Shown one piece after another: positions 47,747 through 51,046 of a DNA stretch of 64,000 nucleotides (the stretch's first letter is position 1; each line of letters starts with the position of its first letter). The stretch is taken from positions 1-64,000 of the forward strand of contig JBHLNZ010000003.1 in the NCBI GenBank assembly GCA_048941015.1, written 5' to 3'. The notes beneath the pieces are model-generated. The model was not told where the DNA came from and made no database searches. It was given only the letters and a program-made list of their open reading frames with translations. The DNA comes from Promethearchaeota archaeon. GTDB taxonomy: Archaea > Asgardarchaeota > Lokiarchaeia > Sigyniarchaeales > SOKP01. The translations under genes were made by a program, and so were the position numbers.

Positions 47747-48829
47747 CTATATAATAATGAATGATACAAAAAATAAAATAGTTGATAAAACAAAATTATA
47801 AGATAAATTATCATCAATTTCTAAATCTAAATAATCTAAAAGTCCTATTATTAGGGCGCCAATGGTTGGTATTAGAAAAAATCCTAAAAGACTTGTAATA
47901 AAAAATTCTCTTAATAAGATTAGTATGATAATCCCTGAGATAAAGGCTGTTATCATTCCTGCAAATAATCCCTCATAGGTTTTGTTTGTTTTTCGAATCT
48001 TTTTCTTCCCCAACAACCTACCAATAAGATTTGAATTTGTATCTCCAAAAATCCCCATAGTCATAGATGTGCATATTATTAAAGGCCCAATTGGTTGAAA
48101 TAATCCATATAAAATAATAATAGAAAAACAACCAATACTCATAGAAATATGAGGGCCAAGTCTCATATGTAATTCTTTTTCTCTTAAAATTCGATTTACA
48201 GGTTTTAATGGATAAATATTAGGTTTTAAAATTCTAACAAAATCTACTGTCAATAAACTTATTAGAGAAATTCCTACTAAAGAAACCACTAAGTATTGAG
48301 TAAAGATCATTTTATCTCCCTCAATATTATAAACAGAAAAAAATAAATCTGAAAAAAAATCAGGTAGTAATTGAAATATATAAATAAAAAAATGTTGGAC
48401 CAAAAATCCTAGAGTAAAATAAAAAAAAATAATGGTTAAAACGACAAGATGACTCAACTTTCTATAAATTTCGTATTTTAAGGGTAATTGTTTAATAACC
48501 TGTTTTTCAGAAATCATTTCCAAATTCTTACTTAATTTGACCTTTTTGCGTTCCCTAGAAATTAAAAAATAAAAAAAGGGTAAAAAAAGTAGTATAAAAG
48601 TAATAATAAAAATGTCAAATGGAAAAATAATAAAATCAATTGATGATAAATGTGAAAAATTAACAATTATCAAATTGACGGTTATACTTAACAATAAAAT
48701 GAGTCCATTAACAATGTTATTTTGATACGCTCCTTTCTCATCTTTTTTCTTTGCTAAAAAACCAACGTATAAAATCATTAATCCATAAGCATAAAAAGCG
48801 CTTACGATTATAACCGATAATATATTCAA
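47747..48829 (-). CDS. CTP-dependent polyprenol/dolichol/phytol kinase-family membrane protein
   Basis: YRKLSH, LREKE, GDTNSNLIGRLLG, KTYEG, IDDNL. Confidence 0.8.
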   Translation of the reverse strand: MNILSVIIVSAFYAYGLMILYVGFLAKKKDEKGAYQNNIVNGLILLLSITVNLIIVNFSHLSSIDFIIFPFDIFIITFILLFLPFFYFLISRERKKVKLSKNLEMISEKQVIKQLPLKYEIYRKLSHLVVLTIIFFYFTLGFLVQHFFIYIFQLLPDFFSDLFFSVYNIEGDKMIFTQYLVVSLVGISLISLLTVDFVRILKPNIYPLKPVNRILREKELHMRLGPHISMSIGCFSIIILYGLFQPIGPLIICTSMTMGIFGDTNSNLIGRLLGKKKIRKTNKTYEGLFAGMITAFISGIIILILLREFFITSLLGFFLIPTIGALIIGLLDYLDLEIDDNLSYNFVLSTILFFVSFIII

Positions 48830-48924: not shown

Positions 48925-50337
48925 TTAAAAATTACTCTCATCGATTTTTGGCATTTCTGGAGAATTTAACGCTATTCTAATCTCTTCATCAGGTAATTCA
49001 TAATCTTCTAAATTCCCTGCCATGAACTCCTTATATGCAAGTAAATCAAAATAACCATGTCCACTAAAATTGAACACTATAACCTTCTTTTCGTTGTTTT
49101 CATGAGCTATTAACGCTTGATCCATTACTTCTTTTATTGCATGACATGTTTCAGGAGCAGGAAGTATTCCTTCTGCTTTAGCAAATCTTATTCCTGCTTC
49201 AATAACTTCAGTTTGGTAATGCATATTAGAAGAAATGATTTTATTGTTATGTAAAATCGAAACCAATGGAGCAATTCCGTGATATCTCAATCCTCCTGCA
49301 TGAATCGGATTTGGGATAAATGAATGCCCTAATGTATGCATTTTTAAAATAGGTGCTTGTTTCGCAGAATCACCATAGTCCCAACGGTAATTCCCTTTAC
49401 ATACACTTGGACAAGCACGAGGTTCAACACCTATTATTTCAACATCGGGGAGAATTCCGTGTATCTTTTCTCTAACAAAAGGAAGTGCAAATCCCATAAA
49501 GTTAGAACCGCCCCCCATACAACCGATTAAAATATCAGGTTCCTCTATCCCTGCTTTTTTTAATTGAATCTTAACTTCTTGCCCAACAATCGTTTGATGT
49601 AGACAAACAAAGTTAACCACGCTTCCTAAAGAATACCGTGCTTTATCACTCCTTAAACTATGCTCTATAGCTTCAGATATAGCAATTCCTAAACTACCGG
49701 GATGATCTGGATTGTTATTGTAAAATAATCTTCCCGATGATGTAAATTCTGATGGACTAGGGAGAACTTCAGCATTATAAGATTGCATTAAAATTTTCCT
49801 GCCCGGTTTTTGAAGAAAACTTGCTCTTACCATATATACTGTGCATTTAATATCAAACAAGTTGCATCCGAAAGACAATCCAGATCCCCATTGCCCCGCT
49901 CCCGTTTCAGTAACCAACTCTTCAATTCCATCTTTTTTAGCATAATAAGCTTGAGCTAATGCAGTATTTGGTTTATGTGATCCGGTTGGAGAAACAGATT
50001 CATTTTTGTAAAAAATTTTAACTTTATCATTAAAAATCCCGAGTTCTTTTTCTAAACCAATAGCACGATGGAGCGGTGTAGGTCTATAAGATCTAGCATA
50101 AATTTCACGTAATTCTGCAGGAATAGGTATAATTGGGTCTTGAGAGACTTCTTGAAGGACACATTCTTTCGGAAAAATTGAGAAAGCCATTTCTGGGGGA
50201 GCAGGTTTGCCATCCATTGGATTTATTAATGGTGTCATAGGAGTTGGTAAATCAGGTAAAATATTTACCCATTCTTTTGGAACTTCACTTGGATCCAATA
50301 AAATTCTTGTATTGAAAATATCTACTATTTTAATCAC
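48925..50337 (-). CDS. trpB2: Tryptophan synthase beta chain, TrpB2 type
   Basis: RPTPLHRA, GSHKPNTA (PLP Lys), TETGAGQWG, GGGSN, HAGGLRYHG, FSGHG. Confidence 0.96.
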   Translation of the reverse strand: MIKIVDIFNTRILLDPSEVPKEWVNILPDLPTPMTPLINPMDGKPAPPEMAFSIFPKECVLQEVSQDPIIPIPAELREIYARSYRPTPLHRAIGLEKELGIFNDKVKIFYKNESVSPTGSHKPNTALAQAYYAKKDGIEELVTETGAGQWGSGLSFGCNLFDIKCTVYMVRASFLQKPGRKILMQSYNAEVLPSPSEFTSSGRLFYNNNPDHPGSLGIAISEAIEHSLRSDKARYSLGSVVNFVCLHQTIVGQEVKIQLKKAGIEEPDILIGCMGGGSNFMGFALPFVREKIHGILPDVEIIGVEPRACPSVCKGNYRWDYGDSAKQAPILKMHTLGHSFIPNPIHAGGLRYHGIAPLVSILHNNKIISSNMHYQTEVIEAGIRFAKAEGILPAPETCHAIKEVMDQALIAHENNEKKVIVFNFSGHGYFDLLAYKEFMAGNLEDYELPDEEIRIALNSPEMPKIDESNF

Positions 50338-50377
50338 CTTTTAAAATTGTTTTTTTTTAAATTAAATGTGTATCATT

Positions 50378-50480
50378 CTTATATTGGAGTTCAATATAAT
50401 CAATGCCCATTTGGCACTCAGAAAGATATCTCTTTTTTAAATTAAAAGTAAAAAAGGGAAAAATAGATAATCTAAATATG
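50378..50480 (-). terminator. Candidate attenuator region (hairpins plus U-tracts) between leader and trpB2
   Basis: TTTAAAT/ATTTAGA stem then TATTTTTCCCTTTTTTACTTTT; CTTTTTTA/TAAAAAAG, TGCC/GGCA and TTATATTG/CAATATAA stems. Confidence 0.5.
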
Positions 50481-50482
50481 AT

Positions 50483-50557
50483 TTAAACCAATGAAAAGAG
50501 CGTTCTTTTACGCCATTGCCACTGCCAACGCCAAAAAGACTTAATTTCAGTAGCCAT
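50483..50557 (-). CDS. Trp-rich leader peptide MATEIKSFWRWQWQWRKRTLFSLV
   Basis: 24-codon ORF with 4 TGG codons within 7 codons, ending 145 nt upstream of trpB2; TATA-like TTTATAAG at 50613-50606. Confidence 0.8.
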   Translation of the reverse strand: MATEIKSFWRWQWQWRKRTLFSLV

Positions 50558-50641
50558 GATAAAAAATCATATTTTTATTTAATAAAATTACAACATGCTC
50601 GTTAACTTATAAATTTATTCTTCAAAATAGTCAAAAATAAT

Positions 50642-51046
50642 TTATCTTCCTTCAAATATTTTACCTAAATTTTTTGATGCAACGCGCATTACTTTAACAG
50701 TTTTCATTAAAGTATCTATTATCGTTCCGGCACAAACTATAACTAACCGACCGGCATTACTAATTACTATATATCCATTTTCAGCTCTTACTATAATTTC
50801 GCTTAATTCCTCTTGAAATAAACTCTGAATTGTCGAACTTCCAGTCATCAATAAAGCACTAGCAAGTCCACAGAATTGATCCCCATCGACATGATATTGG
50901 GGCAGTGCGGAAAATGCTATTTGATATCCTTCTTGAGAGACTAAAGCAATAGCTTCGATATCTGCGTTTGAAGTAATAAAAGTAATCTGAGGGCTAATTT
51001 TTTCAATATCTTCATTGGTAATTCCTAAATCCGACCCAAACTGCAT
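50642..51046 (-). CDS. Roadblock/LC7 domain protein
   Basis: IEAIALVSQEGYQI...LASALL...IIVRAENGYIVI. Confidence 0.88.
   Translation of the reverse strand: MQFGSDLGITNEDIEKISPQITFITSNADIEAIALVSQEGYQIAFSALPQYHVDGDQFCGLASALLMTGSSTIQSLFQEELSEIIVRAENGYIVISNAGRLVIVCAGTIIDTLMKTVKVMRVASKNLGKIFEGR

Follow-up and report, generated by a model that had tools for sequence, protein, structure and literature searches.

We analysed a 64,000-nt stretch of DNA from a Promethearchaeota archaeon (positions 1 to 64,000 of contig JBHLNZ010000003.1, assembly GCA_048941015.1; hereafter the window) and examined a short open reading frame (ORF) rich in tryptophan (Trp) codons, together with the RNA structures around it, in the region upstream of trpB2. 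This gene codes for a stand-alone TrpB-like pyridoxal phosphate (PLP) enzyme and lies on the reverse strand (Table 1). The host, a Loki-type Asgard archaeon, is represented by a metagenome-assembled genome (MAG) of 3.59 Mb with 29.4% G+C, which is 95% complete. The trpB2 gene has 470 codons and begins 145 nt 3' of the leader ORF; its product matched the NCBIfam model NF009057 with an E-value of 9e-190 and a score of 630.9 bits, against a cut-off of 366, which places it within this equivalog family. A family search of the 95%-complete host genome found no TrpA (Trp_syntA), IGPS/TrpC or chorismate-binding TrpE, and therefore TrpB2 stands alone; TrpS was found. By analogy with known TrpB2 enzymes, the protein most plausibly functions in indole salvage, and the host appears unable to make Trp de novo.

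A sequence-only reading of this locus had pointed to an ORF at 50557-50483 with four alternating TGG codons, placed it between a TATA-like box and trpB2, described a U-rich tract past its stop, and proposed that the whole is a ribosome-sensed Trp attenuator. The ORF and its peptide are present as that reading described them, the TATA-like box is found at 50613-50606, NF009057 identifies the downstream gene as TrpB2, and the U-rich tract consists of three T runs at 50463-59 (T5), 50455-50 (T6) and 50447-44 (T4). The TGG codons of the leader ORF occupy 50533-31, 50527-25, 50521-19 and 50515-13, and its TAA stop is at 50485-50483, within or overlapping the 3' arm of helix P1.

Table 1. Features of the trpB2 leader region in the window, in order of transcription (T5 denotes a run of five T, and likewise for T6 and T4).
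Feature	Position	Strand	Remarks
TATA box TTTATAAG of the leader promoter	50606..50613	(-)	motif AAnTTTATAAGTT, nearly invariant in the genus
P1, 5' arm AAATATGATTT	50564..50574	(-)	pairs with 50484-50474; fold and covariation
5' leader domain, three-helix fold holding the leader ORF	50475..50573	(-)	model R1, 53.4 bits, sole match in host genome
Leader ORF, 24 codons plus stop	50557..50483 (75 nt)	(-)	encodes MATEIKSFWRWQWQWRKRTLFSLV; Trp at codons 9, 11, 13 and 15
P2, 5' arm GCTACTG	50548..50554	(-)	directly after ATG 50557-50555; pairs with 50524-50518
Run of four Trp codons (TGG CGT TGG CAG TGG CAA TGG)	50513..50533	(-)	codons 12-14 form the P2 3' arm
P3 hairpin GGCGT-AAAAGA-ACGCT	50499..50514	(-)	5' arm starts in the last Trp codon; CTTTTC follows
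P1, 3' arm (C-box)	50474..50484	(-)	overlaps leader stop TAA in the window
U-tract region (T5, CCC, T6, AC, T4), candidate premature termination site	50444..50463	(-)	sequence
3' leader domain: long hairpin H5 (apex TTG-AACTC-CAA) and hairpin H4	50356..50418	(-)	model R2, sole match in host genome
Shine-Dalgarno-like GGTGAT of trpB2	50333..50338	(-)	AAGGAAT or GGTGAT in the corresponding alignment columns of relatives
trpB2, stand-alone TrpB-like PLP enzyme	48925..50337	(-)	PF00291 (PALP); NF009057; TIGR01415

We first compared trpB2 loci from the host's genus (22 genomes) and order (8 genomes). A Trp-rich upstream ORF (uORF) with a C-terminal W-x-W(-x-W) motif was present 140-460 nt upstream of trpB2 at 22/22 genus loci and 7/8 order loci (examples are MVTEKIDFCWQWPWRS, MLTEKMTFWRWQWQWRS, ...TWPWH, ...FWPWQ and ...SWAWH); at the remaining order locus the sequence reached just 72 nt upstream of trpB2. 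We then extended the comparison to 250 Asgard genomes, 172 of which had TrpB2, and took 80 upstream regions. The motif recurred in 19/26 further loci of the family and in Asgard families f5, f6, f7, f10, f19, f21, f25 and f30, with uORFs such as SWHPWRSWRWQ*, FWAWRWLTWP*, YQWHWGPRGPV* and CWRWWHWF*. Over all comparisons, Trp-rich uORFs before trpB2 were seen in at least ten Asgard families besides the host's own. The number of Trp codons per leader varied from 2 to 6. Within the family, TGG-NNN-TGG occurred in the sense orientation in 37/48 upstream regions and in the antisense orientation in 0/48; outside the family the corresponding values were 24/61 and 7/61. Judged from these sequence comparisons, the strand asymmetry and the spread across families exclude chance. 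No Trp-rich uORF was found at TrpB2 loci in a broad sample of non-Asgard archaea. At three bacterial TrpB2 loci (L057, L065 and L076, from Smithella, Bacteroidales and an actinomycete MAG), the upstream small ORFs had WWW runs and look like classical bacterial Trp leaders before trpB2. Some genera of the family had trpB2 without the Trp-codon 5' domain (L115, L116, L117, L118, L120, L122 and L130); a 3' remnant of this domain was kept in L115 (AACGCC..CATTGG..AGATCAT), and the 3' hairpin domain was retained in L115 and L117.

The leader also carried the signature of a coding sequence. A covariance model was built from six sequences and used to realign 32 leaders of the family. The start codon (27 ATG, 3 GTG) occupied one structural position, the base of P2, in 30/32 aligned leaders. 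In 30/30 of these leaders the start lay 24, 27 or 30 nt from the Trp codon of P2, distances that are all divisible by three, and the frame that it sets was open through the Trp run, being kept across indels of 3 and 6 nt. Among 41 distinct leaders, stops interrupted the other two frames of this stretch in 25 and 22 cases. Conservation within the family was confined to the Trp residues and the initial codons that make up a helix arm, and between families to the W-x-W C-terminus. In most leaders listed, including those of families otherwise unrelated in sequence, the stop came 1-3 codons past the last Trp. By these features the leader ORF looks like a regulatory leader peptide and unlike a functional micropeptide. 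In most relatives, which have a short form, the stop lies inside the P3 loop; the window copy has lost this stop and runs to the TAA in the 3' arm of P1, which accounts for its 24 residues rather than 16-18.

Such an ORF is rare in the host genome. Only 2 of 13,390 small ORFs outside long ORFs contained WxWxW, one of them being the leader ORF, and ATG-initiated ORFs of 10-45 aa with at least 4 Trp numbered 28 of about 32,600 genome-wide, mostly within genes. The other intergenic WxWxW ORF (C126:683-757 (+), L112; MWRWIWTWLRGG...) is near a contig end, 373 nt upstream of a gene for a winged-helix/ArsR-like helix-turn-helix regulator. No convincing leader for another amino acid was found in the host genome. 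One candidate amino-acid leader, a Tyr-rich ORF that precedes a class-V aminotransferase/SepSecS-like gene on contig C126, was rejected because it is a TAT/TTA simple repeat. A -1 frameshift reading of the leader does not fit the window, where all three frames close between the leader and trpB2.

The same RNA segment is predicted to fold into a compact three-helix junction. The 109-nt leader had a folding energy of -27 kcal/mol (z = -3.6), none of 200 shuffled sequences was as stable, and the junction recurred in single-sequence folds of genus members. In P1, a box just 5' of the start (ATGGTTTA; ATGATTT in the window) pairs with a box after the ORF (TAAACCAT; AAATCAT in the window); changes on both sides were seen in 10/11 pairs of this helix (helix 1 of the alignment), ATGGTTTA/TAAACCAT covarying with ATGATTT/AAATCAT. 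In P2, the start codon region (ATG-GYTACTG) pairs with the Trp codon region (CAGTGGCC), and one clade covaries this helix as TTCGCTAA/TTGGCGA, losing one Trp codon (WRGLW). P3 (helix 4) was 92.5% paired with both-side changes in 4/5 pairs, and its arms showed compensation of the types GTGC/GCAC, GTTGGC/GCCAAC, GCAT/ATGC and GCGCGC/GCGCGC. Over the whole 5' domain, 86.7% of alignment cells were paired, compared with 30-58% when the partners were slid by 1-3 columns; compensatory changes occurred in 19/24 pairs, and the covariation score was 0.325 compared with at most 0.077 in the slid controls. The alignment was fitted to the structure and thus favours it, although the margin is still large. 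RNAalifold on a plain MAFFT alignment gave essentially no structure because the hairpin arms were misaligned, and covariance-model realignment was used instead.

Related structures were seen in more distant leaders. In a Thor-like family, hairpins starting from the last Trp codon recurred with compensation (GGGTCC/GGACCC, GGCTCC/GGAGCC). A crude fold of 50 nt at the last Trp codon outside the host's own family was moderately positive, with a median z of -0.96 and the last TGG paired in 12/24 leaders, and was clear in the Thor-like family. Other Lokiarchaeia have a long hairpin with a T-run after it, and the foot of this hairpin and the leader stop overlap. A search of Rfam, including Trp_leader (RF00513) and T-box, returned nothing relevant even at E <= 10. 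TRAP (MtrB, PF02081) was not found in the 95%-complete host genome, and a control search matched Bacillus subtilis.

The leader has its own TATA-like box on the 5' side, and in most of 47 leaders inspected this box began 35-47 nt before P1; from the usual archaeal spacing between TATA box and transcription start site, transcription most likely starts about 8-10 nt upstream of P1. Downstream of P1, a run of at least five T within 50 nt was found in 26/32 leaders, compared with 31% of random intergenic positions in the host genome, and a GCTCT..TTTTT motif was common to leaders of trpB2 and trpD. P3 with its CTTTTC tail scored as terminator-like, in a terminator-type scan that returned 2 sites versus 0.1 expected from shuffles. 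By eye, part of the U-tract could pair with a downstream A-rich run in the 50444-50430 region of the window (CTTTTTTA/TAAAAAAG), and a similar pairing (TTTTAATATTT/AAATATTAAAA) was noticed in another genus (g12, loci L017, L128, L131 and L132). Pairing of this kind might hide the U-tract from aCPSF1.

Past the U-tracts lies a second structured domain that was found in both trpB2 and trpD leaders. The apex of its long hairpin H5 had the consensus TTG-AWYTC-CAA in relatives; 87.5% of cells in the domain were paired, compared with 28-54% in slid controls, and compensatory changes were seen in 15/18 pairs. We had also considered the block at -100..-55 as a second promoter with an ATTG-N5-CAAT palindromic operator. 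This candidate was rejected: the arms covary as RNA, and in L211 the TATA position is GC-rich (CACGGTAGCG). Two further pairings, one between CATTGG and the CCAAT of H5 and one between the H5 loop and the Shine-Dalgarno (SD) sequence, showed no compensatory pattern by eye and were rejected.

The conserved structures are P1, P2, P3, H5 and H4, of which P1, P2 and the 3' domain had no counterpart in the sequence-only reading. That reading had proposed mutually exclusive hairpins, CAATG/CATTG closing either GCGT/ACGC or AAAAGA/TCTTTT. The GCGT/ACGC hairpin (50514-50499) is real and was picked up in the terminator scan; the CAATG/CATTG extension and the AAAAGA/TCTTTT alternative were not seen in alignments of relatives inspected by eye. 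A further pairing suggested there, TTGGCA in the Trp codons with a downstream TGCCAA, failed on comparison, being present in 3/22 genus members with duplex z values of -1.5 to +1.4, no better than shuffles. Regarding Trp attenuation itself, comparison bears out a Trp-codon regulatory leader tied to tryptophan genes; the alternative hairpins meant to effect the switch are unconserved, and termination is a presumed output.

The link to tryptophan genes emerged from a search of 70 family genomes with the R1 model. Matches were obtained in 34 genomes, and 18 sites not coinciding with a known trpB2 match were taken. We found that 17 of these 18 were followed by a TrpD or TrpB2 gene. At nine sites the next gene encoded a protein of about 352-355 aa, and all 8 of those tested with Pfam had the architecture of anthranilate phosphoribosyltransferase (TrpD). 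At eight sites a TrpB2-like gene came next, one tested with Pfam (PALP enzyme) and seven recognised by N-terminal sequence. The last site was a weak, Trp-poor copy before an unrelated gene. In L206 (G276:C17), a Trp-poor and Phe-rich R1-like ORF (MKAINCLFSFWFFFWRF) was located 343 nt upstream of a gene with a CxxCxxCC domain, and this element may be a decayed or repurposed copy. The trpD leaders had the same 5' domain, GCTCT..TTTTT tract and 3' domain as the trpB2 leaders. Also, complete trpD-trpCF-trpB-trpA-trpE-trpG operons of other Lokiarchaeia were preceded by ORFs ending in ...AWSWRR*, ...IWAWRL*, ...FWFWWAWRL* and ...TWWPWQ*. Among genera without the 5' domain at trpB2, several genomes still carried a full leader upstream of trpD; the presence of the 5' domain before trpD where it has been lost at trpB2 indicates a link to tryptophan biosynthesis and not to one gene lineage. 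In L193, a short ORF with W codons close to trpB1 was rejected as a leader, since it falls within an apparent PRAI (trpF) coding sequence, as read from the DNA by eye. In five loci (L203, L204, L205, L210 and L212) the 3' leader domain and trpD are separated by an extra ORF of about 80-100 codons, whose stop overlaps the start of trpD. A core similar to ..IFGPEKSKTAKFI..NY.DVY.. is conserved in its peptide, and the ORF may encode a further regulatory or pathway protein.

With regard to the gene surroundings, a Roadblock/LC7 gene (50642-51046, (-)) is located directly upstream of the leader and ends at 50642. It was syntenic family-wide, with the same product ending in each case (..AAKNL.KIFEGR*). 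The start of trpB2 is anomalous in the window. ATA at 50328-50326 (-) aligns with the ATG start of relatives, and the sole standard start near 50326-50337 (-) is GTG at 50337-50335, within the SD-like GGTGAT; the window copy may have an unusual start or be translated less well, or the ATA may be a sequencing variant. Between trpB2 and pyrI, a 360-codon ORF (47747-48829, (-)) had no Pfam or NCBIfam match; pyrB would be expected beside pyrI.

Conservation of the ORF and of its frame, covarying helices, conserved U-tracts and association with trpB2 and trpD operons characterize this leader, and our assessment leans toward region 50613-50333 (-) being one promoter-proximal regulatory leader of trpB2. 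The leader is very probably a Trp sensor read by the ribosome; that this sensor acts through transcription termination we hold to be slightly the more probable case. What we infer is a translated ORF, with stalling as its signal and termination as the step under control. Transcription would start a few bases upstream of P1, and a ribosome would translate the 24-codon ORF, thereby reporting how much charged tRNA-Trp is available. With little of it, the ribosome would stall on the four alternating UGG codons, and since these codons are in the 3' arm of P2 and before or overlapping the 5' arm of P3, the stalled ribosome would block the P1/P2/P3 fold. Polymerase would then read through into the 3' hairpin domain and trpB2, with more indole-salvage enzyme as the outcome. 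When Trp is plentiful, the ribosome would leave at the stop and the compact fold would close as RNA polymerase reaches the U-tracts at 50463-50444, where transcription would end, most likely by archaeal oligo-U termination aided by aCPSF1/FttA. It has been reported that U-tracts and aCPSF1 jointly set the efficacy of archaeal termination (PMC8716108, PMC7515710, PMC11616081).

Several observations weigh against this attenuation model, and some of them fit other explanations of the same data. The relatives are non-independent samples, U-runs are common at 29% G+C, and some family members that still have trpB2 and the 3' domain have lost the 5' domain before trpB2. The leader alignments showed no conserved alternative pairing that could act as antiterminator. 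A ribosome at the stop would also hold P3 open, so that the two states would differ mainly in timing, a weaker switch than 2:3 versus 3:4 in E. coli. We know of no requirement for a hairpin in archaeal oligo-U termination, so the role of the fold in promoting it is uncertain; a fold-or-no-fold switch without alternative pairing is possible. Besides, no SD-like motif precedes the leader AUG, which is located at the base of P2, and initiation would thus be SD-independent and probably co-transcriptional. Finally, P2 pairing was kept at the cost of a Trp codon in the WRGLW clade, which suggests that the RNA structure is selected in its own right. These last two points, a partly sequestered AUG without SD and the preservation of pairing rather than of the codon, together with the strong covariation of P1-P3 and the exact 6-nt spacing of the UGGC repeats, would suit a non-translated RNA whose UGG repeats and helices bind a protein, tRNA or ligand in a TRAP-, T-box- or riboswitch-like manner, the ORF being incidental. 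However, the start position is fixed with a P2 loop of 24, 27 or 30 nt in 30/30 leaders, the frame is always open while the other frames have stops, the stop follows 1-3 codons past the last Trp in most listed leaders, and the searches gave neither a TRAP gene (PF02081) nor an Rfam family match; we consider such an RNA improbable.

A ribosome-read sensor could also act on a different output. The same Trp sensor may control translation initiation of trpB2 or mRNA stability through H5/H4 (50418-50356) by the SD, as in erm/cat leaders. The 3' domain covaries, is directly upstream of the SD and is specific to leaders of Trp genes; it survives loss of the 5' domain (L115, L117), which implies a function of its own. 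Likewise, in the small-genome family f6 and the Borrarchaeum-like family f19 the leader is followed by a CCCCTC stretch able to pair with the GGAGG/GAGGTG SD, and the apical loop of H5 (AUUCC/ACUCC) resembles an anti-SD by eye. Yet inspection of the alignments gave no covariation of leader segments with the SD or the 3' domain, the distance between leader and gene ranges from 60 to 420 nt, with an extra ORF in between in some trpD leaders, and the conserved U-tracts between both domains would be left unexplained. This output is unlikely, without being far-fetched. The U-tracts are also accommodated if the leader is a separate small unit, a Trp-rich micropeptide gene or trans-acting small RNA that ends there, with trpB2 expressed from its own downstream promoter: a small gene would be complete with the conserved TATA box, the stable compact fold and the U-tracts, action in trans is known for the trp attenuator RNAs and peptides of rhizobia (PMC7298713, PMC7968998), and some relatives have trpB2 without the 5' domain. 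We regard this as very unlikely, given that the element is co-oriented with and immediately upstream of a Trp gene at 17/18 extra sites and in all trpB2 cases, that the apparent proximal promoter is an RNA hairpin with compensatory changes (the TATA position of L211 reads CACGGTAGCG), and that the peptide is unconserved beyond its Trp residues. A functionless chance ORF in AT-rich intergenic DNA has a negligible probability. ORFs of this size with 4 or more Trp are not unique to this site (28 genome-wide); the occurrence of WxWxW in 2/13,390 intergenic small ORFs, the strand asymmetry of 37/48 versus 0/48, phylum-wide conservation and covariation all oppose it, and as far as computation goes the comparative data refute it. 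Taken in all its parts, an Asgard ribosome-mediated Trp attenuator, with a three-helix leader and U-tract/aCPSF1 termination before trpB2 and the trpD operon, constituting a phylum-wide RNA-based Trp regulon, is in our judgement evenly poised between being right and being wrong.

Leader-peptide attenuation is a standard example of coupled transcription-translation regulation and is taught as bacterial. Our literature searches found no report of it in archaea, nor of the Asgard element, in agreement with the novelty claimed by the sequence-only reading. If the attenuation model is true, this would be the first non-bacterial case of leader-peptide attenuation, and it would show directly that the closest prokaryotic relatives of eukaryotes use transcription-translation coupling for regulation; the attenuation principle would have evolved or been retained on archaeal machinery (TATA/TFB promoter, RNA polymerase II-like enzyme, oligo-U/aCPSF1). 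The leader also offers a small cis element with which to ask if ribosome position modulates archaeal termination. The regulatory link independently supports the view that stand-alone TrpB2 makes tryptophan by indole salvage, many such organisms being without the rest of the pathway. Besides, the two motifs defined by covariance models, the 5' sensor and 3' hairpin domains, can be used for annotating Trp regulons in Asgard MAGs.

Among known systems, TrpY of Methanothermobacter thermautotrophicus reportedly controls tryptophan genes, including a separate trpB2 (Xie and Reeve, 2005); this repressor is cited in PMC1854888 (refs 6-7). Known archaeal trp control is protein-based (PMC1854888 and its refs 6-8). 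TrpY is a DNA-binding protein acting at promoter operators, whereas the Asgard element is transcribed, structured, ORF-bearing and covarying as RNA. With Bacillus TRAP and the T-box it shares sensing of Trp or of tRNA-Trp charging at the RNA level through triplets or codon-like leader elements. However, TRAP targets have 9-11 (G/U)AG repeats, while the Asgard leaders have 2-6 UGG in one open frame with start and stop; in relation to the T-box, the leader had no Rfam match and its UGG triplets lie in a conserved open frame. In ermC/cat and tnaC/Rho systems, as would be the case here, a ribosome stalled on a short ORF remodels downstream RNA or factor access, and the Asgard 3' hairpin domain by the SD could serve as an expression platform like that of ermC/cat, though comparison did not demonstrate an SD-sequestering pairing. 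What stalls the ribosome in ermC/cat and tnaC is a drug, or free Trp that acts on the nascent peptide; in the Asgard leaders it is the codons that are conserved, which fits hunger sensing.

The closest comparison is with enterobacterial trpL, and here the resemblance is one of analogy, not homology, as there was no match to RF00513. The Asgard element operates in a host with TATA/B recognition element (BRE) promoters, an RNA polymerase II-like enzyme and U-tract/aCPSF1 termination. Its Trp codons alternate (WxWxW), whereas the bacterial ones are tandem. Its fold is a closed junction of three helices, with the start region paired to the Trp codons, and not the 1:2 / 2:3 / 3:4 set; it has no conserved mutually exclusive terminator and antiterminator, the hairpin pair that defines the trpL family. 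Its U-tract does not directly abut a GC-rich stem, and a second structured domain follows. Nevertheless, in both cases tryptophan biosynthesis genes carry in their 5' leader a short ORF (15-24 codons) with Trp codons clustered near the C-terminus (...CWQWPWRS* here; the E. coli trpL peptide ends in ...GWWRTS*). In both, the Trp codons are in a hairpin arm, the stop comes soon after, and a U-rich tract lies downstream. As in trpL-type leaders, codons for the amino acid of the downstream pathway are enriched (4/24 TGG, with trpB2 or trpD operons downstream), and, as with trpL and the his, leu, thr and phe leaders, the same element is found on several transcription units of the pathway.

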